Positions 1-23,114 of a stretch of DNA of 32,000 nt are shown here, piece after piece. The stretch comes from Aeropyrum pernix K1 (GTDB lineage: Archaea; Thermoproteota; Thermoprotei_A; Sulfolobales; Acidilobaceae). A program made the position numbers and the translations under genes. The stretch's first letter is position 1, and every line of letters begins with the position of its first letter. A model generated the notes under the pieces. The model worked only from the letters and a program-made list of their open reading frames with translations, was not told the DNA's origin and did no database searches. The DNA is taken from contig NC_000854.2 in the NCBI RefSeq assembly GCF_000011125.1, positions 570,001 through 602,000 of the forward strand, given 5' to 3'.

Positions 1-376
1 TCAAAATCATATGAGCATACTCATAGAGATCCTCATCATCGCTGAGCTTTTTAGAAAGGGACGCATGTCTTCGACTTTTTCTGTCATAGAAATGTGACAA
101 ACCTTCATGCCTAAGATATCCGTAAACGATACCTAGGTATTTTTCTCCATTAGCTGGAAGTTCTTTTATATCTGTTATTATGGGGATTTTTTCTGGCGAG
201 AAGGGATTGTTATTGGAGTTCAGCGGATACGAGGTGGATTGGGCGTACTTCACCACATCTGTAATAAATTGATAGTTCAGCTTGATAACTTTTTTATCTT
301 CAGTGTAGGCTTCAGCGATAACTCCATAAGCATAAATGTTCCTTTTGTATTCGTGGGAGGCCAAGTGAATCACCAT
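1..376 (-). CDS. Hypothetical protein, N-terminal part (gene runs off the left edge)
   Basis: My own translation of the minus strand runs from ATG 376-374 with no stop before position 1 (MVIHLASHEYKRNIYAYGVIAEAYTEDKKVIKLNYQF...). It is absent from the supplied track, presumably because it is truncated. The sequence is AT-rich and I recognise no motif. Confidence 0.4.
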   Translation of the reverse strand, partial: MVIHLASHEYKRNIYAYGVIAEAYTEDKKVIKLNYQFITDVVKYAQSTSYPLNSNNNPFSPEKIPIITDIKELPANGEKYLGIVYGYLRHEGLSHFYDRKSRRHASLSKKLSDDEDLYEYAHMIL

Positions 377-781
377 GGAACATTCGAACCTCGTGCTACA
401 ATTTAAGTGTTAGAGAATAATCAGCGACAGATTAGGTCGATATTTCTCTAACACGTATCATAAGCCCTAGAATTCAGTAATATTTCAAAGAGGACGCTGT
501 ATTACCAGCTATGGCTTAGCTTTTGTATTAACTTTATGATAAGATAAACATGAGCGCTTAAATGCCGCACAGCTAGACAGCCGTCTTAACTTTGTATGAA
601 GCTATAAATCAGACTTACCATGACAAAGGCTGGCCGCTCTGTAAGGACCTCTGTCCCCTTTAAGCTTTCTTTAATTAACTGAAAAATGATTGCCAGACTT
701 GGCGGCTTGAGCGGGTAAACCTTTTGATAATAAAAACGCTTTAAGATGTGTTATTTTCCTCTTTAATACCTACAGAAATGC

Positions 782-823
782 TTTATAAGTATTTGTGTCT
801 TAGAAGTGTATATTGAGTGTATA
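782..823 (+). promoter_or_regulatory. Putative promoter/operator of the RHH-methyltransferase operon
   Basis: TATA-like TTTATAA at 782-788. Direct repeat AGTGTATA at 805-812 and 816-823 (11-bp period) overlaps the predicted transcription start and the GTG at 817. Confidence 0.35.
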
Positions 824-1044
824 CGGAGAGTTGGTGGATACACATGAGAGAGCGGGGAAGAGCCAAAACTAAAAGAGTTCAGGTTACATTTACACAGGAA
901 CAGTGGGAGCTGATAGAAAGATTTAGAGGCGTTATGGGCAACGATGATGCTGAGATAGTAAGGAACATAGTGCTGTCTTGGCTGGCTGAGAAGTCCGTAG
1001 TATCCTACAGGATTAAGGAGAAGGGAGGAGGTGCTGAGAGTTGA
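817..1044 (+). CDS. Ribbon-helix-helix (CopG/Arc/MetJ-like) DNA-binding protein, candidate controller of the RM cassette
   Basis: KRVQVTFTQEQWELIERFRGVMGNDDAEIVRNIVLSWL fits the strand-helix-helix pattern. The stop TGA 1042-1044 overlaps the TTG start (1041) of the methyltransferase. An alternative ATG start lies at 844. Confidence 0.65.
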   Translation: MYTESWWIHMRERGRAKTKRVQVTFTQEQWELIERFRGVMGNDDAEIVRNIVLSWLAEKSVVSYRIKEKGGGAES

Positions 1045-2450
1045 GCCGATACAGCACCATTTCGCTGTTCTCTGGTGCTGGCGGGCTGGATTTAGGGTTT
1101 GTGCAGAGCGGCAGGTTTAGGATTGTCTTCGCCAACGAGATACTTCTACCAGCGGCTGTTACTTATTCCAGAAACCTAGGGCTTAGGCTGGAAGTCTGCG
1201 GGGATGAGCCTCGTGTAGAGGCGCAGCCTGGAACTATCATGGCGTGTGATGTTGCTAAGCTGGATTTCACGGGTTTATCGGGTGTTGATGCCGATGTAAT
1301 CATTGGAGGCCCGCCGTGTCAGGACTTCTCTATAGTCAGGGGGCCTGACTGGGACAGGAGGGGCATAAATGTAAAAAGGGGCAGGCTTTATGCGCACTTT
1401 GTCAGAGCTCTGGCCTCTCTGCAGCCTAAGGCGTTTGTCTTTGAGAATGTTCCAGGCCTGGTTAGTGCGAACCGGGGCTTAGCTTATAAGGTGATTCTTG
1501 AGGACTTTGCAAGGCTGAGCATTAGGTGGGATGAAATAAAGAGGATTGTGTCAAGCAATGGGAACGGCGGAAAAGTGGAGGGCTACGAGATAGTCTTTAC
1601 CGGAATCGTGGATTTCTCAAAACTGGGTGTTCCCCAGAAGCGTGAGAGGCTTGTAATAATAGGTTTGAGGAAGGACCTGGCCGGAGGAGGCTTTGAGACC
1701 ATCTCCAGACTTAGGGCGCGCATCGATCATGTCCTCAGCGGCAAGAGGTGGCTGCTCCACAGGTATCCGCTGACCCCTATTGAAGTCTTCGAGGGTCAGC
1801 CGCTGGACAGACTCGGTGATAAGTATAAGGAGGTTATGCTGAAGTGGGAGGGAGTCTGGGATGAGGTAGGTACTGAAAGAGCTTTTGAGTGGAAAAGAAG
1901 GGTGTGGGACAGGCTTACATTCGATATTATAAGTGACTATCTCAGCTTTAACGGTATAAAGCATGCAGACAAGCAGGAGCTGGAGGAGGCGCTGATGCAG
2001 CATGAGGTTCTTCTTAAGGAGCTCGGATACTACGGCAGGCCCGTATACAGCCTTAAGCTACCTGATTCCACCACGGAGCCGCCTTATGAAGGTAAAGCGG
2101 TTGTGGAGAGAATGAAGAGGATACCGCCCGACGAGAACCACGAGTTTGTACGCGGCACCCGCTGGGAGGTAGAGGGAAGGGGGATAAGCCTTGTCTACAG
2201 AAGGATCCACCCACTCAAACCCTCATATACTGTAGTGGCGTACGGTGGGGGAGGAACCCACGGCTACCATTATGACCGCGACAGGGCGACACTGACTCTG
2301 AGGGAGAGAGCTAGGCTCCAAACGTTCCCTGACAGCTTTCTATTCTACGGGAAAAAGCCTGAGATCAGGGCTCAGATAGGCGAGGCTGTTCCTCCGCTTG
2401 CAGCCAAGAGAATAGCTGAAGCGCTAGCTGAGGTCCTTGATGCTGTTTAG
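1041..2450 (+). CDS. DNA (cytosine-5)-methyltransferase
   Basis: The canonical C5-MTase motifs occur in order: I SLFSGAGGLDLGF, IV GGPPCQDFS, VI ENVPGL, VIII QKRERLVIIG, IX RERARLQTFPDSFLF, X GEAVPPLAA. About 210 aa lie between motifs VIII and IX, including a roughly 140-aa helical insertion. Confidence 0.95.
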   Translation: MSRYSTISLFSGAGGLDLGFVQSGRFRIVFANEILLPAAVTYSRNLGLRLEVCGDEPRVEAQPGTIMACDVAKLDFTGLSGVDADVIIGGPPCQDFSIVRGPDWDRRGINVKRGRLYAHFVRALASLQPKAFVFENVPGLVSANRGLAYKVILEDFARLSIRWDEIKRIVSSNGNGGKVEGYEIVFTGIVDFSKLGVPQKRERLVIIGLRKDLAGGGFETISRLRARIDHVLSGKRWLLHRYPLTPIEVFEGQPLDRLGDKYKEVMLKWEGVWDEVGTERAFEWKRRVWDRLTFDIISDYLSFNGIKHADKQELEEALMQHEVLLKELGYYGRPVYSLKLPDSTTEPPYEGKAVVERMKRIPPDENHEFVRGTRWEVEGRGISLVYRRIHPLKPSYTVVAYGGGGTHGYHYDRDRATLTLRERARLQTFPDSFLFYGKKPEIRAQIGEAVPPLAAKRIAEALAEVLDAV

Positions 2451-2451
2451 A

Positions 2452-3504
2452 TCAAAGCTGGCTGATTATCCTCTCCCACTCTTCTCTTTTGCGTCTGAGA
2501 GCGCCCGAGCTTACCAGGAAATGAAGGGTCTTAGTGAATTCACCTATACCCTCGAACTCTATCTTTACGTCTCTGCGGCTCGGAATGACGCCGAGTCTCT
2601 GCAGGTGCTCGACAACAGTATTTTTGTACACGTCTTCTTTAGGATTCCAATAGCCGATAAACTTGTTTATAACGAATTTTTTCCGCTTCATTACTCCTTC
2701 AGCTAAGAATATCGCCGTTCGGCGCCCTATAGCGGAGCCGTATTCCCTTTTATCGAAAAACCCGGCTATGTAAGCTGGTATTCCCGTGAAGTCTGGTATT
2801 AGGTCCCAAATGCTCTCGGCTTCTCCTTCTGTTATAACGCCCAGCTCCAGGGCTCTGCTAAGCATTTTGTCTCGGATCGCGCTTATCCTCTTCAGGAAGG
2901 CTAGAAAGTGCATCCTGGTGACTCCTACCCTCACAAGAACGAAGACGTCGCTGTGATCAACTTGCCTGTAGGGCACGTCAAGCCATATGCCTCTAAGCTT
3001 TGTCGTTTTTATGCTAACCTTGAGGTTGGGAGGCCTTCTTACCCCATCTTTTTCTACTTCCTTTATGTCAGATGGGAGAAATTCCTCGAGCGGCCCTTTC
3101 CTGTAGTCAAGCATGGCTTTGATGCCGTACTCTCTCTCCAGCCATTTTACGAATGCCAGCTCTCCTAGAAACCCCCTGATGGTGTCGGTCCACAGTTGTC
3201 CCAGATCTCTCTGCCTCGACATGCCGTAGTCCGTTCCGGCTAGTCGAGGAGCTAAGTCTAGAGCATGCACGGCGGCCTCTAGGTAGTCATTCTCATCGAG
3301 AACTACTGTGCTCCATCTCAGCCAGTCGATCCACTCATCTAAACTGGAGAACGCTTCTATATCGCGGCCCCGGAGGGCGCCCTCGCAGAGCGTATCGACA
3401 TGTCTGGTTCTCCGTTTTATATCCTCATACAGAAGATATTCTCGGGGGAGCTTTCCACTATTTACTGCTCTCACTATGGCGCTTGTGCAGGTTTGCTGGT
3501 TCAA
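2452..3504 (-). CDS. Putative type II restriction endonuclease (PD-(D/E)xK-like)
   Basis: Convergent with the MTase, one nucleotide from its stop. A candidate catalytic pattern is GELAF ... PSDIKEV ... KVSIKTTK (E / D / S-x-K). No other family motif is recognised. The call rests mainly on genomic context. Confidence 0.55.
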   Translation of the reverse strand: MNQQTCTSAIVRAVNSGKLPREYLLYEDIKRRTRHVDTLCEGALRGRDIEAFSSLDEWIDWLRWSTVVLDENDYLEAAVHALDLAPRLAGTDYGMSRQRDLGQLWTDTIRGFLGELAFVKWLEREYGIKAMLDYRKGPLEEFLPSDIKEVEKDGVRRPPNLKVSIKTTKLRGIWLDVPYRQVDHSDVFVLVRVGVTRMHFLAFLKRISAIRDKMLSRALELGVITEGEAESIWDLIPDFTGIPAYIAGFFDKREYGSAIGRRTAIFLAEGVMKRKKFVINKFIGYWNPKEDVYKNTVVEHLQRLGVIPSRRDVKIEFEGIGEFTKTLHFLVSSGALRRKREEWERIISQL

Positions 3505-3588
3505 GCTCCAGCACCTTACAGCCGCCGCACATTTTATCCACTTTTAACAGATGTTTTTAACAGGTTTAGGCTTAGCTGGTGTCCAGCT
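3505..3588. promoter_or_regulatory. Divergent promoter region between the endonuclease and glycosylase genes
   Basis: An 84-bp AT-rich spacer. ATTTTAT (3531-3537) lies about 27 nt upstream of the minus-strand ATG at 3504. A direct repeat TTTTAACAG at 3542-3550 and 3555-3563 lies about 30 nt upstream of the GTG at 3589. Confidence 0.35.
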
Positions 3589-4260
3589 GTGCTCTTTCTG
3601 GATAAAGGCAGAATCGAGGCTCTCAGGAGGAGATTGATAGAGTGGTATCGCGTGTACGGGGATAAAGATCTGCCCTGGAGGAACACTGCTGACCCCTGGG
3701 CCATTCTGGTTGCGGCGTTCCTGCTTAGAAAAACTACAGCTAGGCAGGTTGTAAGAGTGTATGAAGAATTCCTCAGGAGGTACCCCAATCCAAAGGCGCT
3801 GGCGAGTGCCAGGGAGGATGAGGTTAGAGAGCTCATCCGCCCGCTGGGCATAGAGCACCAGCGCGCCAAGCACCTGATTGAACTTGCAAAGCATATAGAA
3901 GCAAGATATGGCGGTAGGATTCCGTGCTCGAAGGAGAAGCTGAAGGAGTTGCCGGGGGTAGGGGACTACATAGCCTCAGAAGTCCTCCTAGCAGCCTGCG
4001 GCTCCCCCGAGCCGCTCCTGGACAGGAACATGATAAGGATCCTAGAGCGAGTGCTTGGTGTGAAATCCGCTAAGAAGAGGCCTCACACAGACCCCAAAAT
4101 GTGGTCTACGGCCAGGAGGATAGTGCCGAAAGACCCGGATATGGCGAAGGAGTTCAACTACGGGATGCTGGACCTGGCAAGGAAAATATGCACCGCTAGA
4201 AAGCCTCTGTGCACCGAATGCCCGTTAAATGATATTTGTATATACTACAACAATGATTAA
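3589..4260 (+). CDS. HhH-GPD DNA glycosylase with a 4Fe-4S cluster loop, Mig/MutY-like (probable T/G mismatch glycosylase)
   Basis: LLRKTTARQV, the HhH motif LKELPGVGDYIASEVLL (no catalytic Lys, so monofunctional), the Asp in PLLDRNMIRIL, and a C-terminal C-x6-C-x2-C-x5-C (CTARKPLCTECPLNDIC). The track ORF starts at 3400 but overlaps the endonuclease 5' end. GTG 3589 gives a roughly 223-aa protein, typical for the family. Confidence 0.85.
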   Translation: MLFLDKGRIEALRRRLIEWYRVYGDKDLPWRNTADPWAILVAAFLLRKTTARQVVRVYEEFLRRYPNPKALASAREDEVRELIRPLGIEHQRAKHLIELAKHIEARYGGRIPCSKEKLKELPGVGDYIASEVLLAACGSPEPLLDRNMIRILERVLGVKSAKKRPHTDPKMWSTARRIVPKDPDMAKEFNYGMLDLARKICTARKPLCTECPLNDICIYYNND

Positions 4261-4306
4261 GCTATATTAGGACTGGCTGACCTCCCATATCGAATGGTGT
4301 CGAGAC

Positions 4307-4792
4307 GTGTCGAAAACGCTCGAAAGCCCTTGGATGCTTTACCGGAGGAAGGGCTCATATGGGCCTGACGTGGAAGTTGTTCTCATGATGCCTATCTCGG
4401 TTGCCATCGAGGACAAGCTGTCGCTGGAGGTAGCCTTAAGAGAGTTCGGGCAAGTCTTAAACTACTATATGACTGGTCCTTATGATGCGGTGTTCATACG
4501 CATCAACGATGTTGCCAGCGTGGATGACAGGAGACTAGCTATTCTGGAGCGTATGGCCAGTCAGCATGGTATAGGGGTTCTTGTGGGTGGACCTCCTTAT
4601 TCTGCCTTCACCGAGAGCGATGTTTTGAAGCTTCCTGCCGTTATCAGCATGAAAGGCAACCCGCTTAGAGTTTACAGGAGGGGGAGGCCGATGAGCCCGG
4701 TAATAAGGAGGGCTGGCGATTTCGAGCAGCTCATCGAATCTGCGTCTAGGTACAGAAGCTTCTTTAGGGCAGAGTCTGCTGTTGGGAGGTGA
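4307..4792 (+). CDS. Hypothetical protein (gene 1 of the three-gene operon)
   Basis: 161-aa ORF 46 nt downstream of the glycosylase gene. Its stop is embedded in the start of the next gene (GGAGGTGATG). No motif is recognised. An alternative ATG start lies at 4334. Confidence 0.55.
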   Translation: MSKTLESPWMLYRRKGSYGPDVEVVLMMPISVAIEDKLSLEVALREFGQVLNYYMTGPYDAVFIRINDVASVDDRRLAILERMASQHGIGVLVGGPPYSAFTESDVLKLPAVISMKGNPLRVYRRGRPMSPVIRRAGDFEQLIESASRYRSFFRAESAVGR

Positions 4793-6231
4793 TGCTGTTG
4801 AGGAGAGGGAGGGAGAGAAGGAGGATACCTGAACATGTTGTAACCGACCCCTTTATAGATGTGGCTTTTGTTTATTCTCTGATTAAAGATAGTGAGAGGT
4901 TAGATGTCATAAAAAGGCAGGCTCAGGTGTATGTTGATATAGGTAGTAAAGGTGTAGAGACCGCAACCTTCAAAAAGTACAAAGAGGAGGCCGCCTCTTT
5001 TATAATAGAGGCTTTCGGCGCGGTTTATAAAAACGTTGATAAGGAGCTTGAGAGGAAGTTCGCAGGATATGATGATAAAACTGTTGCTCAAGTAAAAGCT
5101 GAGAGGGCTTGGACCAGCCTTATAGCGTTGCTTGCCTCAGCTATGCTTATGAAAAGAGCAGGAGTGGGAATTGGCTACTTTATCCCCTCGCAGTATGCTG
5201 ATATTTCGAGGCTGGAGCCTATATTAAAAGTTCTAATTTATGAAAAAGCACGCTCGCGGGGAAGAGCTGCATCCCGGGTTCTTGAAGCTGCACTGAAGGA
5301 TCTTGGGGTCGATAGAAAATTAGAGGAGCTGGCCGAGATAGCGCCCACCCTCTGGTGGGTTAATCTGATAATGGAAAGCGAGATTATTGAGGGCCTGCTG
5401 AAGTTCCACTATCTAACATACGTTTTTAGAGATAGGATAAACGCGTTCGTCGCTGAGGTAGAAGATACTCTCTCAACTATTGAAGAGCACCAGGCTGATT
5501 ATGATTACGGAGAAATCGAAGTGCTTAAGGGACTGCTCAGCAGATGTGTAGAGCTGAGGGGCCAATACATCAATAAGTTGCAAAATGCTCTCCTCTTCAT
5601 TAAAAGCCTGAGGCCCAGCGTGTTAAAAATAGCAAAGCCCGAGCAGTGGGAATGGTTCATCAAGGATGAAACATTGACATATGCAACTATGGTATATCTT
5701 GCAGAAACCCAAAGGCTCAGCGGAGCAGGCAGGATATCCCTCAGCATAACGCGCTTGCTAGAGCCGAAGAAAGGAGTTTATGCAGGAGTAGCTTCTGCCC
5801 TCGCAAGTCTGCTTGCTCTCTCACCCGTGTTTATGCAGTACAATATAGAGGCGCGGGGAAAAGCCGTCATAACGCCAGCGGATATAGTTGTAGCTGTGCT
5901 GAGGCTCATCGGCAGGCACGGCAGGGCAAGAGACTTCACAGTCGGTGTGGAGGATGCAGTAGCAGAGATTATTCAGTTTTGGAGAGAAGCGGATATTCTG
6001 CGCAGGGTTAGCATCTATGCCGAAGAAGATGCTACGCAGGACATGCAACACATCCTCGACTCGTTTAATGCATCTATGGCTCTGCTCCTCAGCACTGGCA
6101 TAGACGGCGTTCACCCAGTTACGTCGAAGAGGGTGTTGCTTAAGCTTCCCCCTAGAATGATTGCCTATGACTCCCTCTTTGTACGTCCTAATGCGTTTTT
6201 TGAAATGGTTAGAAAGGTTTGGGGTGGATAG
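4789..6231 (+). CDS. Hypothetical, mostly alpha-helical protein (gene 2 of the three-gene operon)
   Basis: 480-aa ORF. GTG 4789 or ATG 4792 overlaps the upstream stop and is preceded by a GGGAGGTGA Shine-Dalgarno-like sequence. No motif is recognised. Confidence 0.65.
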   Translation: MMLLRRGRERRRIPEHVVTDPFIDVAFVYSLIKDSERLDVIKRQAQVYVDIGSKGVETATFKKYKEEAASFIIEAFGAVYKNVDKELERKFAGYDDKTVAQVKAERAWTSLIALLASAMLMKRAGVGIGYFIPSQYADISRLEPILKVLIYEKARSRGRAASRVLEAALKDLGVDRKLEELAEIAPTLWWVNLIMESEIIEGLLKFHYLTYVFRDRINAFVAEVEDTLSTIEEHQADYDYGEIEVLKGLLSRCVELRGQYINKLQNALLFIKSLRPSVLKIAKPEQWEWFIKDETLTYATMVYLAETQRLSGAGRISLSITRLLEPKKGVYAGVASALASLLALSPVFMQYNIEARGKAVITPADIVVAVLRLIGRHGRARDFTVGVEDAVAEIIQFWREADILRRVSIYAEEDATQDMQHILDSFNASMALLLSTGIDGVHPVTSKRVLLKLPPRMIAYDSLFVRPNAFFEMVRKVWGG

Positions 6232-7838
6232 GCGTGGAGAGAGAGGTGTGTGTTAATCAGCTACTTAAATTTTTGGACAGCATAAGGGGAAGACTGTCTT
6301 TTAGAATGGTTGAGCGTCTTTTTTCGCGCGGGCTGGATGAGAACCCTATATTTGAGGCCATAAGCAAGTCGGGGGCTTTGGCCAAAAACGTGATTATAAT
6401 ATTGGGCGGAAGGGGATGCGGCAAGACGCTAGTCATGAGATACATAAAGCACTACTTCGAGCCTGAGGGCTGGGATTACAAGTACTTCAGCGGAGATCAG
6501 TTTAAAGAGGCTGATGCCCAAGAGCTTATGAAGATAATATCGGAAACAAGGGATTTGCTCGAGAACAGCGAGGATTATAAGGTGATTGTCGGCATTGATG
6601 ATGTTGTGGAGGCAAGCGAAGCTATAAGAGATACAATTAAAAACCAGCTGGTGCCTTTGGTTGTGGATTATGCAGGGAGAATTAAACTCGTCATCTCAGG
6701 ACAGAGCGAGCGCGTTGTTGGGACAACAACAGTGCTCCATATATTAGAAGACACTTTGGGACGCAGTCCGAAGGCTGAAATGCTCTTCGGGGAGTACCCT
6801 GGAGAAGTACTGCGCAAGCAATTTAGAGAGAGCTACGTGAGAAAAGATCCTATAAAGCTCTTCAGAGGAGCCGCTATGATAAATCTCGATGCGTACTGGT
6901 CTAGATTCCGCTCTCTAGATATGGCTGAAGAGCTAGCTGATGTTATAGTAAGGCTGGCTGAATTTTACAAGTACAACAGCGGTGTAGGGGAGTGTGGGGA
7001 GGTCTCTGAAGAGTTATTAAAGTACAAGCGCGGGCTTGCCTTGATAGCCCTGGCAAGCCTGCCTAAAACTCTTTATCCGTACGACAAGATAGTAATAGAA
7101 TATATAAGCCCGGAGCCGGATACGCCTTCCCCCGCTCTGAACGGTCTGGGCATCTCTGACCTTATCTACAAATTCATATCTGGGGAGCTGAGAGGGCTGA
7201 GTGAGGTGGCAGAGAGGCTTTACAGCCGCTTATCACAGCAACGAGTTGCAGCTGATGTCGATGATATAAAAGAGGCTATAATGGAGTCGGCCAGCGAGCT
7301 GACCTACGCCAGCGTTGTAAGAGGTGCTCTGCCTGAGGCTTTAGGGATAGAAGTGCCTGAGGCCGAGCAGGGCAGAAAGCGCAAGCCCCTTAGACCGCGC
7401 TTAGACTTCATATATATTGACAGGGAGGTAGGCGGGCAACCTTCACGTGTTAACATAATCATACATGTACTTAAGCCCGATGCTAAAGGCTATGTTGTGT
7501 CCAGCTCGCTGTATAAGCTCGCGAGACTCGTCGAGCTGAATATACCCAGCGAGGCTGAAGGGAACTATTTAGCGGTCATAGTCCCGTCGAGGGCTCATAT
7601 GAGGGCGGTGTATAGATATGCAGAGATAAAGCGGATAGGCCGGGATATTCTAGTGGTGCTGGCTGACAGCTTGGGTGAACTAGACAATAGTGTTGTTAAA
7701 ACATTAGCCGATAAAAATGCTTCAGAAGAGGAGCTTAGACTGCTTCGGCATATATTCTTGGGAACTGTGCTCTTCAATCTAAGGGATGACAAGAACGTTC
7801 CTCAGCTCATATACTACCTCGCACCGACAGTTTTTTAG
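6219..7838 (+). CDS. P-loop NTPase, archaeal-ATPase/STAND-like, with a long uncharacterised C-terminal region (gene 3 of the operon)
   Basis: Walker A ILGGRGCGKTL, Walker B YKVIVGIDDVVEA, then KLVISGQSE. The start overlaps the end of gene 2 (TTG 6219; alternative GTG 6234). The C-terminal roughly 350 aa is unassigned. Confidence 0.8.
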   Translation: MGWIGVEREVCVNQLLKFLDSIRGRLSFRMVERLFSRGLDENPIFEAISKSGALAKNVIIILGGRGCGKTLVMRYIKHYFEPEGWDYKYFSGDQFKEADAQELMKIISETRDLLENSEDYKVIVGIDDVVEASEAIRDTIKNQLVPLVVDYAGRIKLVISGQSERVVGTTTVLHILEDTLGRSPKAEMLFGEYPGEVLRKQFRESYVRKDPIKLFRGAAMINLDAYWSRFRSLDMAEELADVIVRLAEFYKYNSGVGECGEVSEELLKYKRGLALIALASLPKTLYPYDKIVIEYISPEPDTPSPALNGLGISDLIYKFISGELRGLSEVAERLYSRLSQQRVAADVDDIKEAIMESASELTYASVVRGALPEALGIEVPEAEQGRKRKPLRPRLDFIYIDREVGGQPSRVNIIIHVLKPDAKGYVVSSSLYKLARLVELNIPSEAEGNYLAVIVPSRAHMRAVYRYAEIKRIGRDILVVLADSLGELDNSVVKTLADKNASEEELRLLRHIFLGTVLFNLRDDKNVPQLIYYLAPTVF

Positions 7839-7906
7839 CTATTCAGAACCCGGCTTACTTCCTTCTTTGAGCACTTCAAATTACAGAGTCCGATGTAGAT
7901 TCCAAG

Positions 7907-8191
7907 CTAGGACCCTAGAACGTCCCGACACTTTTCTAGGCACTCTGCCAGCCTCCGACCCTTCTCTGTGAGCTTTAAGGTCTTAACTCTGTAGCTTAGT
8001 GTTTCTTCTTTTACGAGTCCGGCTCTTATTAGGCGGTCTTTGAGGCCCATGAAGAATGTTTTCTCGCTTACTCCCGAGGCTTTCACTATCTCTGCTAGGC
8101 TTGGCTCGTACCCCTTCTTTTCGAATTCCAGTAGTGTGGGGAGTATTCTTATGAGGTGTCCGAACTGTAGCCGTAGGGTCTCATCGTCCAT
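7907..8191 (-). CDS. Winged-helix transcription regulator
   Basis: 94 aa. LAEIVKASGVSEKTFFMGLKDRLIRAGLVKEE ... LTEKGRRL is typical of a MarR/ArsR-like wHTH. It is divergent from the small-gene block and shares the palindrome-rich promoter region. Confidence 0.65.
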   Translation of the reverse strand: MDDETLRLQFGHLIRILPTLLEFEKKGYEPSLAEIVKASGVSEKTFFMGLKDRLIRAGLVKEETLSYRVKTLKLTEKGRRLAECLEKCRDVLGS

Positions 8192-8240: not shown

Positions 8241-8330
8241 TCTATACTCTATCACCTATACTCTAGAGTGGTAAGCTTTATTAGGTTCCGTTATCATTCT
8301 ATACTCTAGAACCTAGAGTATAGGTGATAG
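8241..8330. promoter_or_regulatory. Operator array in the divergent promoter: four copies of CTATACTCTAG plus an 18-bp inverted repeat
   Basis: Motif copies lie at 8242-8252 (10/11 match), 8256-8266 and 8299-8309, with an inverted copy at 8313-8323. The last two form a palindrome with a 3-nt spacer. The perfect 18-bp inverted repeat CTATCACCTATACTCTAG (8249-8266) / CTAGAGTATAGGTGATAG (8313-8330) abuts the GTG start at 8331. Confidence 0.6.
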
Positions 8331-11839: not shown

Positions 11840-12685
11840 TTAGAGTGAGGGGGTGTTGGATCTTGTCTTAACGGTTTCAATCAGCATGGTCCACGCCTTA
11901 GGTGCTTCGTAAGGTATAACCATGTAGATAGGCTTGACCAGCCTGCTCCAGTCCCTGTTATAGTCTACCCGGAATGCCAGCATACCCCGCTCTATAATAG
12001 GTATGTCGTGGCTGCTGTCTCCGGCCGTCACCACCACCTTGGCACATGGCCTGAGCAGGGGCTCTTGGAGCGCAGCGTCTATAGCCATCCCCTTACCTCT
12101 ATGGGCAGCTATCTGTACAGTCCTCGGAGCCCTGTGGACGTAGGTTAGCTCCCTATACCTAAGGGCCGTGCTGAGTATAGTGTCTAGGCATTCTTGGCTT
12201 CTGCTCCAAATAACCTCGAGATACTCCCTCCGGGCGGCCAGAGCGGCCCTTTCTCGAGGCAGGCCGGTTATCAGCTGGGCCTCCGTGGCGTCGGCTTTCG
12301 AGAGTCTTACGGCCCCGCATGTTTCGGCCAGCGAGTCCAGGAGGGCGTCTATGCTGGCCAGCGGCTTGCCCAGCGCAGTATACTCCAGGCCCACCTCGCT
12401 GTTGAAACCCGTAGGCCTCGCGAGGCTCCCCCGGGGGCCGTATATCGCGCCGCCAGACTCGGCTAGGGCTATCCTCTCCCCCGGGGGAACGCCTATAGAG
12501 TCCCAGAGCTCAACTATCTCGTATATGCTCTTAGAAGTGACGGGGACAACCCTGTATCCCAGATCCAGCGCCTCTAGATACACTTCCCCAGCCTCCCCGG
12601 CCTCTCCCCCGGGGCCTACGAGTGTGTTGTCTAAATCTGTGAAGATAACTCCGGAGCAGGGCCTCGCCTCCAAGGCTTGCCCCAC
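11840..12685 (-). CDS. mpgP: Mannosyl-3-phosphoglycerate phosphatase (HAD-IIB)
   Basis: HAD motif I FTDLDNTL, motif II VTSKS, motif IV GDSSHDIP. TGLPRERAALAARREY resembles characterised MPGPs. It lies 20 nt downstream of mpgS on the same strand. Confidence 0.85.
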   Translation of the reverse strand: MGQALEARPCSGVIFTDLDNTLVGPGGEAGEAGEVYLEALDLGYRVVPVTSKSIYEIVELWDSIGVPPGERIALAESGGAIYGPRGSLARPTGFNSEVGLEYTALGKPLASIDALLDSLAETCGAVRLSKADATEAQLITGLPRERAALAARREYLEVIWSRSQECLDTILSTALRYRELTYVHRAPRTVQIAAHRGKGMAIDAALQEPLLRPCAKVVVTAGDSSHDIPIIERGMLAFRVDYNRDWSRLVKPIYMVIPYEAPKAWTMLIETVKTRSNTPSL

Positions 12686-12705
12686 TCTATCCTAGGGAGA
12701 GCATG

Positions 12706-13890
12706 CTAGACGGCGAAGTAGTAGCTGTCGCTACTCTCTGCTATGAAGGAGGCGAAGACTTTCTTAGGGTCTGTTCCGGCAGGCCTGTATGTAGAGGGTT
12801 TTGGGGGCTCCTCGGCAAGGCCTAGGCTCTTGAGCTGGTCGAGTATCCGGCTCTTCACCTCCTCGCTGGCGAGGGAGGAGTGGAATATTGTGCCGAGGCT
12901 TACAGCTGTCATCTCGGCAATGTGCTCGTCGCCCCTCTCAGCATGTATATGGGGGTTCAGGGGGGACACCTGCCTGACCTCTATGTAGTCGGGCGCTATG
13001 GGGCACTTGCCCGCCTGCAGTCCTAGGTAGCAGTTCTCCAGCATCCACACCAGCTGGTACGTCTCCACGGCGAAACCACTCCCCCAGTTCATCTCCATAC
13101 CGAGCTTTACCGTGAGGGCCTGCTCGCCCGAGTTTCCGGTCTTTATTATGTCGGTCTCTATCCTCTTGTAGATTGAGAGGGTGTAGTTTAGCACGCCGTT
13201 GGTTATAGTGGAGACCCTCCCCCTCTTCCTGAGGTACATGTCGCTCGCCGCCAGCTTCCCCTTATAGGGCCAGACTATCCTCACCATGGAGTAGCTACTT
13301 GTAGCCCTAGACAGGGCCGAGTAGTATATCCATGAATACTCGAGGGCCGATCCGGGAACGTAGTTATCGCTGTCAACATAGCCCACAAAGTCTGCGCCGA
13401 GCGCCGCCGCGACTATGAAGCCCAGCAGCATACCCTCCCCCTTCCCCTTCCTAACCCTACCACTGGCGCCCACCATGCTCTCAAGGGGTGTCCCCGAAAG
13501 GGCTTCACTCCAGGCAGGGTCGAACTGGTAGACTATAGCTATATCACGCTGCAGGCTCCTACTTATCAGCCGGGCTAGCTCCACCTCATTAGAGAACCTG
13601 TCTACAGGCTCCCTTGTAGAAGCTGAGACAACAACCACCGGCGACTCAGTAGGTATAGAGCGGAGCACGTTCTCAAGTGTAAGCAGGTCCTCATCCTTCA
13701 CAGGAACAACTATAACCGTCCTAAAGGCGGCGTCCTCAAGCTCGCCCCGATCAACATAGACAAGGTTAGTTGGCCTGGACTTAGGCCGCCCGTCTAGGGA
13801 TAGTACCCGGCTAACATCATAAATCCTGACGGCGCCGAACACCTCGAACTTTGCTGGGAGGCTCAGCATCAACCCTCTAAACCACCCCAC
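12706..13890 (-). CDS. mpgS: Mannosyl-3-phosphoglycerate synthase (GT55)
   Basis: The hallmark blocks shared with the Pyrococcus enzyme are present: KGKGEGM, VDSDNYVPGSA, MVRIVW, RGRVSTITN, TGNSGEQALT, LNPHIHAERGDEHIAEM and EEPPKP. At 394 aa it has the same length class. Confidence 0.93.
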   Translation of the reverse strand: MGWFRGLMLSLPAKFEVFGAVRIYDVSRVLSLDGRPKSRPTNLVYVDRGELEDAAFRTVIVVPVKDEDLLTLENVLRSIPTESPVVVVSASTREPVDRFSNEVELARLISRSLQRDIAIVYQFDPAWSEALSGTPLESMVGASGRVRKGKGEGMLLGFIVAAALGADFVGYVDSDNYVPGSALEYSWIYYSALSRATSSYSMVRIVWPYKGKLAASDMYLRKRGRVSTITNGVLNYTLSIYKRIETDIIKTGNSGEQALTVKLGMEMNWGSGFAVETYQLVWMLENCYLGLQAGKCPIAPDYIEVRQVSPLNPHIHAERGDEHIAEMTAVSLGTIFHSSLASEEVKSRILDQLKSLGLAEEPPKPSTYRPAGTDPKKVFASFIAESSDSYYFAV

Positions 13891-14143
13891 ACAGACGCTG
13901 GCAAGCCCCGGGAAGATGATGCACGGCTAGTTTCCAAGGAGATTAACGCATCCCGGGGCTTAGGCAACCAGAGCCCAGCCAGCACAACCCCTATTTAATA
14001 GGTAGCCCGGGGTTCTTAAAGAAGACTCGAAATAGTTGCCGGCAAACCGTACACAGCCACACTGAAGGAAAACGATTATAAGGAAAGCAGAATATATTTC
14101 GCTGAACCACTATAACCACCAAGGGATGCTACGAATAGAGCAG

Positions 14144-14222
14144 GGGCCCGTAGCTCAGCCAGGACCAGAGCGCCGGCCTGCGGAGCCGGAGGTCCCGGGT
14201 TCAAATCCCGGCGGGCCCGCCA
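14144..14222 (+). tRNA. tRNA-Arg (anticodon GCG), CCA encoded
   Basis: GGGCCCG-TA-GCTC-AGCCAGGACCA-GAGC-G-CCGGC-CTGCGGA-GCCGG-AGGTC-CCGGG-TTCAAAT-CCCGG-CGGGCCC-G-CCA folds into a full cloverleaf. Confidence 0.95.
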
Positions 14223-14256
14223 CATCTTAACAACCTTTCTATTGAATTTTAACCTG

Positions 14257-14727
14257 CTATTGTTCACATTGTTCCTGGTACGCTTTTAGATTTAACTTCT
14301 TTAAGGCCTCATTTATTATCTTATCCGATATTCTGAACCCGTGTTCTTTAAGTTCTCTTAGCGCTTGAATTAGCTTATCCTTACTTATAAGTCCTTTACT
14401 ATAGGCTAGTCGTAAGAGGCCTATGGTTCCAATGACCTTTAGATTCATGGATTTTGCTTTTGATCTTGCGATTCTATCGTCTAGGGCTAACATACAGCCA
14501 TGCTCTACTGCTAGTGCTATTGCCTCTGACTCGCCTTTACCTAGAGGATCGTGAAGTGCCTCTACCAATGCCCTATTCTTTGGAGCCAAAACCTCTACTT
14601 TACCCTGATTTATAAGGGTTTCTAGCTCCTTTGAACCAGGCCTACCACGGCCTTTAGTGACGACCTCCTCGTAAACTGCATGAGGCACTGTTATCTCTAT
14701 ATTAAGAACTGAAATTATATTTGTCAT
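14257..14727 (-). CDS. PIN-like nuclease of the DUF3368/COG2405 type (toxin), N-terminus displaced by a 7-bp duplication
   Basis: VPHAVYEEV ... LGKGESEAIALAVEHGCMLALDDRIARSKA ... VIGTIGLLRLA is typical of COG2405. The expected N-terminal strand (MNSSVIIALAEIN) is encoded at 14773-14735 in another frame. Confidence 0.75.
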   Translation of the reverse strand: MTNIISVLNIEITVPHAVYEEVVTKGRGRPGSKELETLINQGKVEVLAPKNRALVEALHDPLGKGESEAIALAVEHGCMLALDDRIARSKAKSMNLKVIGTIGLLRLAYSKGLISKDKLIQALRELKEHGFRISDKIINEALKKLNLKAYQEQCEQ

Positions 14728-14734
14728 TTGTCAT
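14721..14734 (-). repeat. 7-bp tandem duplication (plus strand TTGTCAT x2; gene strand ATGACAA x2) interrupting the PIN gene
   Basis: Read directly from the sequence. Removing one copy fuses ATG 14773 in frame with the 14727 ORF, giving 170 codons. Confidence 0.8.
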
Positions 14735-14795
14735 ATTTATCTCTGCGAGCGCTATTATGACGCTTGAATTCATTACTAGGCAGTGACTCGGCAGG

Positions 14796-15035
14796 CTACT
14801 CAATCCCCAGCTCCTCCCGAAGCTCCTCGTCACTGTAGGGATAGGCTTGTATTCTCCTCCTACGAAGCTCTACTAGGAAGTCATATAGACTCATTCCAGC
14901 CAACTCAGCCGCCCGCTCCACACTAACAATGCCACGGAGAAACAGGTCAACCGCATAAGCTAGTTTAACCTCTCTCTCAATATCACCAACATAATGAGAG
15001 GGCACCTTAACCTTAACCACTACCTCACGAGACAA
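14796..15035 (-). CDS. UPF0175 (COG2886) family antitoxin-like HTH protein
   Basis: 79 aa. AVDLFLRGIVSVERAAELAGMSLYDFLVELRRRRI is the family signature. It lies directly upstream of the COG2405 PIN gene, which is the usual pairing. Confidence 0.75.
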   Translation of the reverse strand: MSREVVVKVKVPSHYVGDIEREVKLAYAVDLFLRGIVSVERAAELAGMSLYDFLVELRRRRIQAYPYSDEELREELGIE

Positions 15036-15182
15036 TCCTTCTCCCTATCTACTACAATACTTAACAACTCTTAAGTTCTTACAATCAATTTGAGAAAACC
15101 TGTCCCATGCATTACCCTTCTAGGTATAAAAACGTTATAAAATGTCCCAGATTTCCATCGATTCTCGGGATGTTAGTATTTA

Positions 15183-15238
15183 AGCGCCGGCCTGTGGAGG
15201 CGGGGTCTCGCGGGGTTCAAGCTTACGGCGGCCGCGCT
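15183..15238 (+). other. Degenerate copy of the 3' two-thirds of tRNA-Arg (relic att site)
   Basis: AGCGCCGGCCTGtGGAGgCGGgGTCtCgcGGGGTTCAAgCttaCGGCGGcCcGCgC aligns by eye with 14170-14222 of the tRNA-Arg (first 12 nt identical). The stems no longer pair. Confidence 0.6.
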
Positions 15239-15787
15239 ATGGCTACTCCTTCATTCCTTCGCTAGTTCGAACATTTTGGGCAAAAGCCCACCGCCGGAGA
15301 CCTTCAGTTCCTGTGTGGAAATCCCTCGTAATGATTGTGGCTTGAGTTAAAGACATTTAGTGTTAGAGATAAGGTTAGTAAAGCTAATATTTGGCTGTAT
15401 TGGGAATAGTTTTTCATAAAGGCTTAATGGAAAGGAGGAAACTAGCTTATGAGAGCTTATATGGAACCAATATCGCTTAACTATTCTTTCGAGGGAGATA
15501 GTTACGGCTTTTGGAATCTTTATTAACCGTTATTTATTGTATCTCAGGGCTAGCCTAACAAGTTGTCTATATGACGAAATAATATATATTTGCAAATAAA
15601 TTATGTCGATTACACAAACATACTTAGTCTCTGTTGAGGTTTTGTAAGTGAATATAAAAACCAAATTTTCAGGTTTTCCATATAGTATTGCTATGTCTGC
15701 TACAATTGTTGAAGTTAAGAATAACCCAATTCTAATAAGGAAGCTTGGCGAGCAAGCCTATGTATTACGGCAGGGGGTTCAGAGCTA

Positions 15788-16276
15788 GTGGCCGACTTCG
15801 CCAACATATTTCTGGGATGGCTGCACATCCTGGGCGTGGTAATATGGATAGGAGGCTCTATAGTGCTAGACGTGATTCTGAGGCCTGGCTCAATCAAGAG
15901 CATGGGGTTAACGCAGGAGCAGGCCGCCAGGCTTGGTCAAGCTATTTCCAAGAGGTTTAGCCCTATGGTCTGGATATCTGTAGTCGTGGTAGCCGCTACA
16001 GGTGTTTTAAGAGGGGCTAGAATGGATGTTTTGGGCTATGACGCTCTTACAGGTACGACTTACGGCCTCATACTCTCGGCAAAGCTGATCCTATTCCTCG
16101 CCATGATGGTTATAGGTGTTATGATAGGTAGGACAGGGCTAAAGCTGGCTAAGGCAGGTGATCCGGAGGAGTCTCTAAAAGCCCAGACCAAAATTAGAAA
16201 GCTCTCCGAGGTAAATATAGCGATAGGTATAGTGGTTATACTTCTAGCTGTCGCGCTGAGATATGGCGGCATATGA
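15788..16276 (+). CDS. Integral membrane protein, CopD-like domain
   Basis: 162 aa with four hydrophobic segments. WLHILGVVIWIGGSIVLD resembles the CopD/YcnJ-type first helix. Confidence 0.55.
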   Translation: MADFANIFLGWLHILGVVIWIGGSIVLDVILRPGSIKSMGLTQEQAARLGQAISKRFSPMVWISVVVVAATGVLRGARMDVLGYDALTGTTYGLILSAKLILFLAMMVIGVMIGRTGLKLAKAGDPEESLKAQTKIRKLSEVNIAIGIVVILLAVALRYGGI

Positions 16277-16333
16277 AAGTAACAGTAAGGGTTATACTGA
16301 CCCGGAGGTAACGCCCCCTACATTGCTATCTAG

Positions 16334-17476
16334 ATGCGTTTGAATCCCGAGCGGCCACTCTTATCAGGATCTTGCACCCAGTACCTAGACTGGGGGTTGC
16401 CCATTGCTATGGATGCTGTAGGCCCCGGTGAGGCTAGGAGGATTCTGGACAGGTATGGGGCTGATAGGGTCCTGCTTGTAGGCCCTCCTGGGGTTGGTAA
16501 AAGCACGGTTGTTAGGAGTTATGCTGAGGACTCGGCCTCGAGGGAGGGGTTGGAGTTCGTGGACCTCTCTGAAGCACGCAGCCTTGAGGACCTCGACACA
16601 GATTCGACATACGCCTTCCTCCATATATACGCCCCCCTGGTTAGGGCCGAGGACCTCGCTTTCATAGCCCGAAGGGGGGAGGGTTATGACTGGACTCTGC
16701 CTTCACGGCTAGCCTACCTGACTAGGCCGGGTGTGAGGGGTCTTGTGTTTATAGACGAGATTACTAACGTGGCCCTGCCAGAGGTGCAGACGATACTCTT
16801 CAGCATGGTTCTCGACAAGAGGGTAGCCTACAACAGGCTGTCCAGCGGGGTTGAGGTGGTGGCCGCTGGCAACTCGCCGCGGGACAGCCCCGTCTCCCAG
16901 TGGCCCCCTCCGCCGCTGCTCGACAGGTTCAGGCTGCTGATAAGGGTGAAGCCGCCGGACCTGGAGGAGTGGGTGTCGTGGATGAACTCGGTCGGGAGGC
17001 CGTGGGACAGGAGGGTTGCGGCCGTGCTGAAGGTCAAGCCGGTTCTTATGTACCGGCCGCCGGAGGATGAGGAGGACAAGTTCCCAACCCCCAGGTCCTG
17101 GAGCCAGCTGGCGTGGGAGCTCGCCAAGACGGGCGCCCATGGAGACGAGGCGGTCAGGATAGCAGCTATGGTTGTCGGCCGCAGGGCAGCGGAGGAGGCT
17201 AGGCAGTTCCTCCAGCCAGACCCAGCCTCTCTCGACCTCTCAACGTTTCCCCGGCTAGATGAGAGGGAGCGGCTGACGCTTCTATCGGTGGAGGCTGGCA
17301 GGCTTGCTTCGCAGGATGTTGTAGAGCTTTGCAGGACTCTGGAGAAGGTTGGCTCCTACGGGGCCCACTATGCCGTGTGGCTGCTCATGCTCTCCGGCGT
17401 TGACACCGTAGAGGCCGCGAGGTCCTGCAGCTATGTTGAGGACCTCCTAAGCAGGCTCTCCAGCTACCTGGGGTAG
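16334..17476 (+). CDS. MoxR-like AAA+ ATPase
   Basis: Walker A LLVGPPGVGKST, Walker B GLVFIDEITN, sensor-1 VVAAGNSP, and PLLDRFRLLIRVKPPD (Arg finger/MoxR signature). Confidence 0.85.
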   Translation: MRLNPERPLLSGSCTQYLDWGLPIAMDAVGPGEARRILDRYGADRVLLVGPPGVGKSTVVRSYAEDSASREGLEFVDLSEARSLEDLDTDSTYAFLHIYAPLVRAEDLAFIARRGEGYDWTLPSRLAYLTRPGVRGLVFIDEITNVALPEVQTILFSMVLDKRVAYNRLSSGVEVVAAGNSPRDSPVSQWPPPPLLDRFRLLIRVKPPDLEEWVSWMNSVGRPWDRRVAAVLKVKPVLMYRPPEDEEDKFPTPRSWSQLAWELAKTGAHGDEAVRIAAMVVGRRAAEEARQFLQPDPASLDLSTFPRLDERERLTLLSVEAGRLASQDVVELCRTLEKVGSYGAHYAVWLLMLSGVDTVEAARSCSYVEDLLSRLSSYLG

Positions 17477-17496
17477 GGGTCGAGCGGTGGCACGCT

Positions 17497-17715
17497 ATGT
17501 ACGCTGAGGCTTCCTGCCTCGGGAGGCTGAAGATAGTGTACTTCAAGGGACCCATCGTCATAATAATGGTGGGGGACCTGCCGCTCCCCCTTCCGTCGGC
17601 TCTTTGCAGACCCCACAGGGTTATCGAGCGGAGGGGGTACAGCCGCGGCTTCCACAAGGTCCTCGAGCTGGCACTGAGGGCGAGGACGGCTTGGATGGCT
17701 GCGGGGATAAGATAA
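17497..17715 (+). CDS. Probable original N-terminal part of the vWA gene, now in a different frame
   Basis: 72-aa ORF starting 20 nt after the MoxR stop. It ends at a TAA created inside a 5-bp tandem duplication. Removing one copy fuses it in frame to the vWA ORF. Confidence 0.5.
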   Translation: MYAEASCLGRLKIVYFKGPIVIIMVGDLPLPLPSALCRPHRVIERRGYSRGFHKVLELALRARTAWMAAGIR

Positions 17716-18800: not shown

Positions 18801-18815
18801 ACCGGGTGGAAGAGT

Positions 18816-23039: not shown

Positions 23040-23114
23040 GATAGACACATAGGATCTAAATCCCTGAGTCTAAAGGATATTGCTGCGTTCGGAGAATGTG
23101 CTGTGCATCAAGGT

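Follow-up and report, generated by a model that had tools for sequence, protein, structure and literature searches.

The three genes described here lie in a 32,000-nucleotide (nt) stretch of the Aeropyrum pernix K1 genome (contig NC_000854.2, positions 570,001 to 602,000 of the forward strand), referred to below as the window, and are orf41, orf42 and orf43 (orf41-152, orf42-479 and orf43-534) of the known provirus APSV1, in whose public record all three are deposited as hypothetical. Genes 1-3, or the trio, follow a restriction-modification (RM) system and a DNA glycosylase gene, with which they form a seven-gene cassette. The reading that we favour, held at slightly less than even confidence, is that the trio would encode an ATP-dependent nuclease module that is accessory to, and dependent on, the RM system. 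It draws on the predicted properties of the three proteins and on a dependence that is one-sided across related loci, since the close form of the trio was not seen without the RM-glycosylase block and the block occurs without the trio. The trio and the short upstream element that may drive it are as follows:

4263..4269, + strand: TATATTA, a possible archaeal TATA box read from the sequence; gene 1 starts about 38 nt further on
4307..4792, + strand: gene 1 (orf41-152), 161 amino acids (aa), carrying a PD-(D/E)xK-type motif, putative nuclease effector
4792..6231, + strand: gene 2 (orf42-479), 479 or 480 aa, predicted all-alpha protein with a small C-terminal beta element
6234..7838, + strand: gene 3 (orf43-534), 534 aa (539 aa from TTG 6219), predicted AAA+ ATPase of Orc1/Cdc6-like shape

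The initial annotation, made from the letters of the DNA, had described three coupled genes on one strand that begin 46 nt past the glycosylase gene, and both points agree with our analysis: the open reading frames (ORFs) span 4307-4792 (161 aa), 4789-6231 (480 aa) and 6219-7838 (539 aa), and 46 nt separate the glycosylase stop at 4260 from position 4307. The stop codon of gene 1 was also correctly placed within the start of gene 2, as TGA 4790-4792 falls within GGAGGTGATG and shares bases with the start codon of gene 2, either GTG 4789 or, in the APSV1 annotation, ATG 4792; gene 2 ends with TAG 6229-6231. The 13-nt overlap that had been reported between genes 2 and 3 exists only when gene 3 is read from its most upstream start, TTG 6219, and vanishes with GTG 6234, the start favoured by an alignment of 32 homologues and by the APSV1 annotation, which gives a protein of 534 aa and a spacer of 2 nt. 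For gene 1, GTG 4307 (161 aa) is favoured over the annotated ATG 4334 (152 aa) by the N-termini of its homologues (MSN/MSK/MTK...). The TATATTA element would possibly provide the trio with its own promoter. Full-length homologues at 29-50% identity, with dozens of invariant columns, indicate that genes 1-3 are real genes under purifying selection. None of them has a qualifying match in Pfam, NCBIfam, PADLOC or PHROGs, in keeping with the first impression that the trio belonged to no recognised family, and a full-text search of the literature gave no description of it.

Gene 1 is the candidate effector of the module. Ten residues, S17, G19, D21, E23, E35, K37, Q49, Y53, Y59 and D60, are invariant in 11 homologues, including the distant ones of loci L106 and L108 introduced below, and define the pattern G-[PA]-D21-x-E23, about 11 residues, E35-x-K37 and then Q49-x-x-x-Y53. 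This layout, in which D-x-E is followed by a hydrophobic hairpin, E-x-K and a Q-x-x-x-Y on the next helix, is that of a PD-(D/E)xK motif, and it is recognised here, as a motif reading, as a putative RecB/Cas4-like signature. The conserved nuclease-type motif of the trio thus resides in gene 1, and not in the C-terminus of gene 3, where the initial annotation had placed it. A word-indexed homology search with gene 1 returned Aeropyrum copies only; in the related loci, the ORF upstream of each gene 2 homologue is a gene 1 homologue at 29-40% identity, with the exception of L109. Comparison of the gene 1 profile with an approximate Hjc sequence by hhalign gave a probability of 0.5%, which is not significant. 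The best PDB profile match, the Lon N-domain at E 0.0015, was judged spurious, and a member-wise Pfam scan produced scattered chance matches only.

Gene 3 is a member of the AAA+ superfamily by fold, with an Orc1/Cdc6-like shape, an assignment that concerns superfamily membership only. The motifs first noticed in its sequence are well supported, the Walker A motif GGRGCGKT (residues 63-70; G63-GRGCGK69-T70, of the form GxxxxGK[ST]), the Walker B motif I126-D127-D128 (hhhhD[DE]) and K156..Q162-S-E164 being invariant in the 32 homologues, in which the KLVISGQSE stretch as a whole is invariant or nearly so. In the AlphaFold2 model (mean predicted local distance difference test score, pLDDT, 89.7), the N-terminal half forms an AAA+ base followed by a helical lid. 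A Foldseek search against the PDB gave 115 matches at E <= 1e-3, of which the top 50 are all AAA+ proteins; the nearest are ATAD2, p97, ORC4 and Pyrobaculum Cdc6 (1FNN), at E 7e-6 to 3e-4, and RuvB was also matched. Gene 3 thus resembles the Orc1/Cdc6 initiators and the Pfam family PF24389 in its base and lid and in its Foldseek matches to ORC4 and Cdc6, with a template modelling score (TM-score) to Cdc6 and ORC4 of only 0.29-0.36. It differs from Orc1/Cdc6, PF24389 and the nSTAND families in scoring below their gathering thresholds and in a C-terminal region of about 250 aa that has no relative. PF24389 (ORC-CDC6-like) reaches 21.9 bits against a cut-off of 27, over residues 55-78 of the Walker A stretch only, AAA_14 reaches 26.8 bits against 27, and all other Pfam matches are likewise sub-threshold; the PDB sequence-profile search found P-loop matches only. 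The suggestion that the protein is STAND-like is not borne out, as nSTAND3 scores 20.3 bits against 27.2 and nSTAND_NTPase5 19.0 against 34, and the structural neighbours are AAA+ proteins, not STAND.

For the C-terminal half of gene 3 (residues 285-539), neither Pfam nor PDB sequence searches gave a relative, and the member-wise Pfam scan stays at chance level. It is modelled as helices followed by an alpha/beta domain, and the helices after the lid could form a winged helix. Conserved residues of this half are P393, L418, D421, G424, Y425, E447, R449, G474 and D476. The degenerate PD-(D/E)xK core proposed for it at first (FIYIDRE...HVLKPD) falls away on alignment, as neither the D of IDR nor any (D/E)xK is conserved.

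Gene 2 was described from the start as long and helical, and its AlphaFold2 model (pLDDT 87.5; predicted template modelling score 0.89) is indeed almost entirely alpha-helical. As far as Foldseek searches go, this is a confident model without a detected structural relative: no match was found in the PDB (best E 0.22, TM-score at most 0.15) or in BFVD (best E 0.18), and gene 2 has no Pfam, PDB-sequence or PHROGs match. A gene 2 profile run against 1.84 billion cluster representatives retrieved only 18 proteins at E <= 1e-3. No relatives were found in the plasmid collection or among IMG/VR viral contigs, and the only matching records in the phage collection are two copies of APSV1. The family thus appears to be very small and, as far as the origin of its members is known, confined to thermophilic archaea. 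Four of its proteins, P0061 and P0088-P0090, share one cluster at a minimum of 90% identity, yet come from metagenome-assembled genomes (MAGs) assigned to Thermofilum, Desulfurococcaceae and Sulfolobales; this spread reflects either very recent transfer between orders or binning errors.

The block that precedes the trio in the window comprises four genes:

844..1044, + strand: small gene orf37-66, whose 3' end overlaps the methyltransferase start
1041..2450, + strand: orf38-469, C5 cytosine DNA methyltransferase (PF00145 E 2.5e-52; TIGR00675 dcm 2.5e-44)
2452..3504, - strand: orf39-350, 350-aa protein R350, between the methyltransferase and the glycosylase
3589..4260, + strand: orf40-223, HhH-GPD/[4Fe-4S] DNA glycosylase of the Mig (T:G mismatch) type (PF00730 7e-16; EndIII FeS motif 5e-7)

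Window positions 817-4260 thereby hold a C5 methyltransferase, an endonuclease candidate and an HhH-GPD/FeS glycosylase, which is the make-up of a type II RM system with Mig-type repair. M.ApeKI of A. pernix K1, whose growth temperature is 90-95 C, has been shown experimentally to make 5-methylcytosine (5mC) at GCWGC (PMC8557920). Given the 100% identity of the window to the K1 provirus, orf38-469 is taken to be M.ApeKI (UniProt Q9YDP3). R350 is, by inference, probably the cognate type II endonuclease R.ApeKI: its position between methyltransferase and glycosylase is constant, it has no Pfam, NCBIfam or PDB match, and E115, P144-S-D146 and S164-I-K166 are invariant in eight homologues (an E...PSD...SIK pattern). 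The small gene probably encodes a ribbon-helix-helix regulator of the block, judging by a sequence pattern of an RVQVTF strand and two helices; it has no Pfam or NCBIfam match, and its relatives, at 59-80% identity, adjoin the methyltransferase in nearly all related loci. For the glycosylase, the mechanically called ORF (3400-4260) is over-extended, and the start at 3589 follows the APSV1 annotation. Its best solved relative is 1KEA (E 7.8e-40), which we take to be Mig.MthI and whose PDB entry names it a possible enzyme of G-T mismatch repair.

Contigs encoding homologues of gene 2 or gene 3 were looked up, and one genome per species was scanned. Within the close subfamily (35-50% identity), every distinct locus with enough flanking sequence, ten of ten, carries the trio together with the small gene, the C5 methyltransferase, R350 and the glycosylase (L001/2, L004-7, L008/9, L010, L011, L012, L020/21, L022/23, L024/25 and L110-112); L003 is cut inside gene 2 and hence uninformative. 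Among these loci, L011 is from a Zestosphaera tikiterensis MAG (644-kb contig), L012 is from Sulfolobales archaeon Acd1 (849-kb contig), and L110-L112, the loci of P0061, have the standard seven-gene arrangement; P0061 is among the four weakest full-length gene 2 relatives. Three arrangements occur: the small gene, methyltransferase, endonuclease (reverse strand) and glycosylase followed by genes 1-3; an inverted RM-glycosylase block that diverges from the trio; and the trio first. The inverted block, with the glycosylase at its far end, is found in L001, L022, L024, L028, L078 and L082, and L022 has decayed endonuclease and glycosylase fragments beside the trio in addition to an intact inverted block. 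An apparent loss of the endonuclease in L011 was rejected, as a 331-aa ORF in the usual place is a distant R350 homologue (hhalign 94.9%, E 4e-8). Conservation of the trio as a unit near RM and defence genes, which the initial annotation had proposed to test, holds across relatives, as does its placement in defence or mobile-element contexts, with integrases or resolvases nearby in L001, L003 and L106, and a MmeI-like enzyme and a PLD protein as neighbours in L010. What does not hold is the initial view of an independent system that merely sits beside an RM cassette, as the close trio always comes with that particular RM-glycosylase block.

The reverse relation was addressed by scanning metagenomes with the R350 alignment, which yielded 80 loci: 19 with the trio, nine without it although the flank measures at least 1.2 kb on either side, and 52 too short. 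The flanks of trio-less loci extend to 4.5 + 8.3 kb in L042 and 1.9 + 8.4 kb in L099. In a neighbour-joining tree of R350, built with no bootstrap, the trio-less loci fall among trio-bearing ones in at least five separate nested lineages, and the block is therefore self-sufficient and has repeatedly existed without the trio. Across 17 non-redundant cassettes, mean pairwise identity is 69-73% for the RM and glycosylase genes and 50-57% for the trio, and pairwise distances correlate with a Spearman coefficient of 0.66-0.80 between the two modules and 0.83-0.93 within them. The trio thus appears to evolve faster than the block, yet to co-diverge with it.

Only seven of the 53 APSV1 genes, orf37-43, recur in related loci, the other 46 being found in none; the unit is therefore the cassette and not the viral backbone. 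The first 10733 positions of the window are 100% identical to positions 25873-36605 of HE580238.1, the sequence of APSV1, an inducible provirus of A. pernix K1; the rest is host DNA with genes for mannosyl-3-phosphoglycerate synthase, tRNA-Arg, the thermosome and others. The initial annotation had assigned the trio to an island of lower GC content, which both profiles bear out: GC is 0.39-0.52 in window 1-8000 against 0.63-0.66 directly after, and within APSV1 the 24-34 kb region is a 10-kb island of 0.46-0.52 in a viral backbone of 0.59-0.66. The seven-gene cassette is a low-GC insertion foreign to the APSV1 backbone. These observations bear on the alternative raised at the outset, that the trio serves APSV1 in replication, partition or packaging, which we regard as very improbable. 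Such a role would agree with the location of the genes inside the provirus and with the resemblance of the gene 3 fold to Orc1/Cdc6 initiators. Against this, no other APSV1 gene co-occurs with the cassette, the island is foreign to the virus, genes 1-3 have no PHROGs family, gene 2 is absent from other phage-collection records, the plasmid collection and IMG/VR, and relatives lie on the large chromosomal contigs of 644 kb and 849 kb. APSV1 also has a separate ATPase, ORF290, which a review of archaeal-virus ATPases lists with the fusellovirus ATPases, and orf43 is not listed there (PMC4124505).

The dispersal of the cassette points to a different alternative, namely that the trio moves or keeps the RM genes as a mobility or maintenance module, loosely like TnsA/TnsC of Tn7, or serves a stabilisation function. 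In Tn7, TnsA is a PD-(D/E)xK nuclease and TnsC an AAA+ ATPase, and the trio likewise combines a small nuclease-like protein with an AAA+ ATPase. The cassette occurs in unrelated genomic contexts in several archaeal orders and phyla, protein clusters of at least 90% identity extend across Thermofilum, Desulfurococcaceae and Sulfolobales MAGs, and integrases or resolvases lie nearby in L001, L003 and L106. We nevertheless consider this explanation improbable. A search of the window found no terminal inverted or direct repeats at the cassette borders, gene 2 has no transposase or recombinase fold (Foldseek against the PDB), the trio takes different positions with respect to the block, and trio-less RM blocks are equally dispersed; a cargo that is constantly the same RM family throughout the close subfamily would, moreover, be unexpected for a general mobility module.

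For the four weakest full-length relatives of gene 2, the contigs of origin were looked up and the homology of the flanking genes was checked with profiles. Besides P0061, they lead to three loci in which the partners differ. L108 has all three genes, divergent from a 429-aa protein and an N4/N6 type II methyltransferase (PADLOC MTase_II 6e-25), with no C5 methyltransferase and no glycosylase. L109, whose type forms a cluster of 15 members on contigs of up to 47 kb, has overlapping genes 2 and 3 (stops and starts), then a 1265-aa superfamily 2 (SF2) helicase (3119-6916) and a 690-aa protein; there is no gene 1 in the 261 nt upstream of gene 2, and neither C5 methyltransferase nor glycosylase. 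The helicase matches SngC (1.6e-26), DpdJ, BrxH, Cas3 and DrmA models, and its N-terminus (...VDAVL...VVIEAKS...YEQLVLYAY..., followed by a cysteine cluster) has a D..E-A-K..Q-x-x-x-Y pattern of the gene 1 motif type, which suggests a Cas4/RecB-like nuclease-helicase. In L106, from Pyrococcus kukulkanii, the trio and a 200-aa gene lie among AbiEi/AbiEii, PIN/RHH, NYN, resolvase and integrase genes, again with neither C5 methyltransferase nor glycosylase. PDB sequence searches with the 429-aa protein of L108, the 690-aa protein of L109 and a 704-aa partner in L106 gave no match. From the distant loci, genes 2 and 3 therefore emerge as the constant core, to which the putative nuclease is added either free-standing or fused to a helicase, and the partners of this core appear to be DNA-modifying or DNA-processing enzymes.

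Under the favoured reading, gene 2, of novel fold, and gene 3, as the Orc1/Cdc6-like AAA+ ATPase, would be the conserved, translationally coupled core of the module, and gene 1 its effector, a small PD-(D/E)xK-type nuclease. The module would attack incoming DNA, and the mark set by the neighbouring methyltransferase would spare the host genome; such licensing by methylation would explain why the trio is kept only beside an RM system of this kind. The ApeKI-type endonuclease and the Mig glycosylase would constitute, with the methyltransferase, a self-sufficient RM-plus-repair unit able to lose the trio, and the seven-gene cassette on APSV1 would protect the lysogen. An RM-dependent module of this type accounts for the one-sided dependence, for the presence of a methyltransferase in every close locus and for the switch of methyltransferase in L108. 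The analysis shows how the genes are built and conserved, how they are linked, that gene 3 has an AAA+ fold and that no structural relative of gene 2 was detected; from this we infer the nuclease activity of gene 1, the formation of a complex, the dependence on methylation and the defence function itself.

Several points weigh against this reading. Neither Pfam nor PDB profiles match gene 1 to any nuclease, genes 2 and 3 have no demonstrated DNA-binding or methyl-reading domain, and L106 has no recognisable methyltransferase within 10 kb. As the cassette already includes an endonuclease, the need for a second effector is not obvious, and the linkage could largely reflect common descent of a single cassette that moves as a block. 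The L108 trio, despite its different methyltransferase, is no more diverged than the C5-linked trio of L110-L112 except in gene 2 residues 241-270. No specificity domain thus clearly follows the methyltransferase, and in the comparison of genes 2 and 3 between L108 and the C5-linked trios those residues are the sole, and weak, candidate for a specificity region that follows the partner.

The one-sided linkage would fit equally well if the trio guarded the RM system in the manner of PrrC, remaining silent while RM is intact and releasing its nuclease upon host or viral nucleic acid, as abortive infection, once a viral anti-restriction factor inhibits the RM enzymes. An exchange of partner for an unrelated RM system in L108, the faster evolution of the trio relative to the RM genes and the location of the trio on a provirus and in islands that also contain toxin-antitoxin and Abi genes would all suit a guard, and we treat this explanation as an unlikely competitor. 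It is weakened by L109, in which the core pair shares an operon with a nuclease-helicase and not with RM, an arrangement more like direct DNA targeting. No known sensor or toxin domain of guard systems was detected with Pfam, PADLOC or NCBIfam, and physical contact with the RM proteins would be hypothetical.

The neighbouring glycosylase leads to one further explanation, in which the trio is a DNA-repair accessory. It would deal with the abasic sites or nicks that result when the Mig glycosylase acts on 5mC deaminated at high temperature, or with breaks made by the endonuclease. Gene 1 lies close to the 3' side of the glycosylase and on the same strand in most loci, at 46 nt in the window and at 100-200 nt in 14 of the 19 R350-seeded trio loci, and 5mC is made in an organism growing at 90-95 C (PMC8557920). 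According to a review, a repair mechanism against 5mC deamination in A. pernix is presumed, not identified (PMC11033074). The glycosylase, encoded close by M.ApeKI here and by the homologous methyltransferase in almost all related loci, is itself likely to be the repair enzyme for heat-driven 5mC deamination, and so to answer the question raised in that review. For the trio, a repair role is quite improbable: the L108 trio accompanies an N4/N6 methyltransferase with no glycosylase, L109 and L106 have neither C5 methyltransferase nor glycosylase, the glycosylase lies at the far end of the inverted block in the six loci named above, and nine cassettes retain the 5mC methyltransferase and the glycosylase without the trio.

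The RM-dependent nuclease module can also be framed more broadly with the distant loci. In this joint proposal, which we put forward as possible and hold tentatively, gene 2 as sensor or scaffold and gene 3 as motor would be the core of an unrecognised family of immune modules in hyperthermophilic archaea that recruits interchangeable PD-(D/E)xK effectors, namely gene 1 or a nuclease-helicase, and is licensed by a companion methyltransferase. If so, simple type II RM systems would be reinforced by an ATP-driven second layer, and proviruses such as APSV1 would carry a module that protects lysogens.

Known systems offer partial precedents. In PADLOC-DB v2, a check that the initial annotation had asked for, genes 1 and 2 have no match, and gene 3 has P-loop-local matches only, to PDC-S01, PDC-M49A and PtuA at 10.3-16.4 bits; genes 1-3 are not members of the systems of that database (Septu, PARIS, Shango, DISARM, BREX, MADS and others). 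At the sequence-profile level, none of the precedents LlaJI/BsuMI, DISARM, BREX, PrrC and Shango is homologous to the trio. R1 and R2 of LlaJI are McrBC-like restriction subunits that accompany a C5 methyltransferase, and BsuMI has three restriction genes. Like the trio locus as read here, LlaJI and BsuMI place a C5 methyltransferase operon beside a multi-gene restriction operon with an AAA+ NTPase and a PD-(D/E)xK-type nuclease. The trio differs from them in having no McrB/McrC similarity, an Orc1/Cdc6-like gene 3 and a gene 2 without counterpart; unlike these systems, its locus also has a separate simple endonuclease, R350, and an RM block that works as a unit without the trio.

PrrC, which is encoded within the type I RM locus EcoprrI, is one anticodon nuclease that includes an ATPase domain of the ABC type. 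It resembles the trio as an extra effector in or beside an RM locus that occurs only with RM and is dispensable for RM itself, and differs in being a single protein without homology to genes 1-3. DISARM class 2 uses a C5 methyltransferase, and in both DISARM and BREX, as in the favoured reading of the trio, a methyltransferase provides the self mark for a multi-protein effector that contains an ATPase. The trio differs from both in having no Drm or Brx match, and its cassette adds a classical type II endonuclease and a mismatch glycosylase.

Shango consists of the TerB-domain protein SngA, the ATPase SngB and the helicase SngC, and the order of helical protein, ATPase and SF2 helicase is shared by the L109 variant, whose helicase gave the SngC match noted above. 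Genes 2 and 3 differ from Shango in having no SngA or SngB match and no TerB domain, and the window trio, unlike Shango, has a small putative nuclease in place of the helicase and is tied to RM. The closest parallel to the upstream block, and a comparison that covers window 817-4260 but not genes 1-3, is the MthTI RM system with Mig.MthI on plasmid pFV1, in which a thermophile's mobile element likewise carries a C5 methyltransferase and an endonuclease along with an HhH-GPD glycosylase for T:G mismatches; it has no trio. What we rate as new here is an RM-associated ATPase-nuclease module apparently built of unrelated proteins, one of them without a detectable structural relative.

To our knowledge, few archaeal antiviral systems beyond CRISPR-Cas and RM are known. 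The trio would add a three-gene module that is conserved, moves horizontally, includes one component of novel structure and is found in thermophilic archaea only. The RM system to which it is attached, ApeKI/M.ApeKI, is among the few from archaea that have been characterised biochemically. Its one-sided dependence on RM leads to a direct, testable prediction on self/non-self discrimination. Should the trio serve a type II RM system as second effector or as guard, layered RM immunity would exist in hyperthermophiles too, and the provirus would hand its host RM, deamination repair and the trio as one package. The analysis puts the characterised ApeKI/M.ApeKI system inside the inducible provirus APSV1; in the M.ApeKI paper, the word 'provirus' occurs zero times (PMC8557920).

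Other features of the related loci deserve mention. Short R350-like paralogues or fragments, at 29-43% identity to part of R350, recur beside the small gene or gene 1, and are either copies that decayed when a cassette was replaced or a small gene of their own:

L011, 7475-7807: R350-like piece
L022, 5885-6301: R350-like piece
L031, 448-957: R350-like piece
L066, 3304-3744: R350-like piece
L074, 5370-5786: R350-like piece
L080, 4045-4554: R350-like piece
L087, 5715-6050: R350-like piece

Within 6 kb of the cassette in two unrelated loci, L001 (1-3823) and L011 (17377-21670), a DEAD/Helicase_C protein (about 1020-1080 aa, 33% identical) is paired with an MZB/DUF1998 protein, a DrmA/DrmB-like pair of the DISARM type. 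Genes of about 425 aa without a family match lie beside the block in the trio-less loci L042 (3001-4281) and L099 (376-1653); one of the same size is found upstream of the small gene in the trio-bearing L020 (301-1575).

Within the window, the provirus ends at position 10733, about 39 codons into an SSV-type integrase gene, where a split integrase would be expected to break off. A single tRNA gene is present in the window, tRNA-Arg (GCG; 14144-14222), and was rejected as the attachment site, as it lies 3.4 kb beyond that end. Directly 3' of gene 3 and convergent with it is orf44-94 (window 7907-8191, - strand), encoding an ArnR1-like winged-helix protein (PF22166, E 5e-61), and in L108 a gene with this domain (14504-14794) follows the distant trio at a distance of about 3 kb. 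At the transition from the low-GC island to the high-GC backbone of the virus, the intergenic region 8241-8330 contains a perfect 18-nt inverted repeat, CTATCACCTATACTCTAG / CTAGAGTATAGGTGATAG, at 8249-8266 and 8313-8330, accompanied by related direct repeats, and may be an operator or a recombination site. The recognition sequence of ApeKI, GCWGC, occurs 73 times in the host part of the window (12178-32000) against 51 expected from mononucleotide composition, and 10 times in the cassette against 12.9, which is near expectation.

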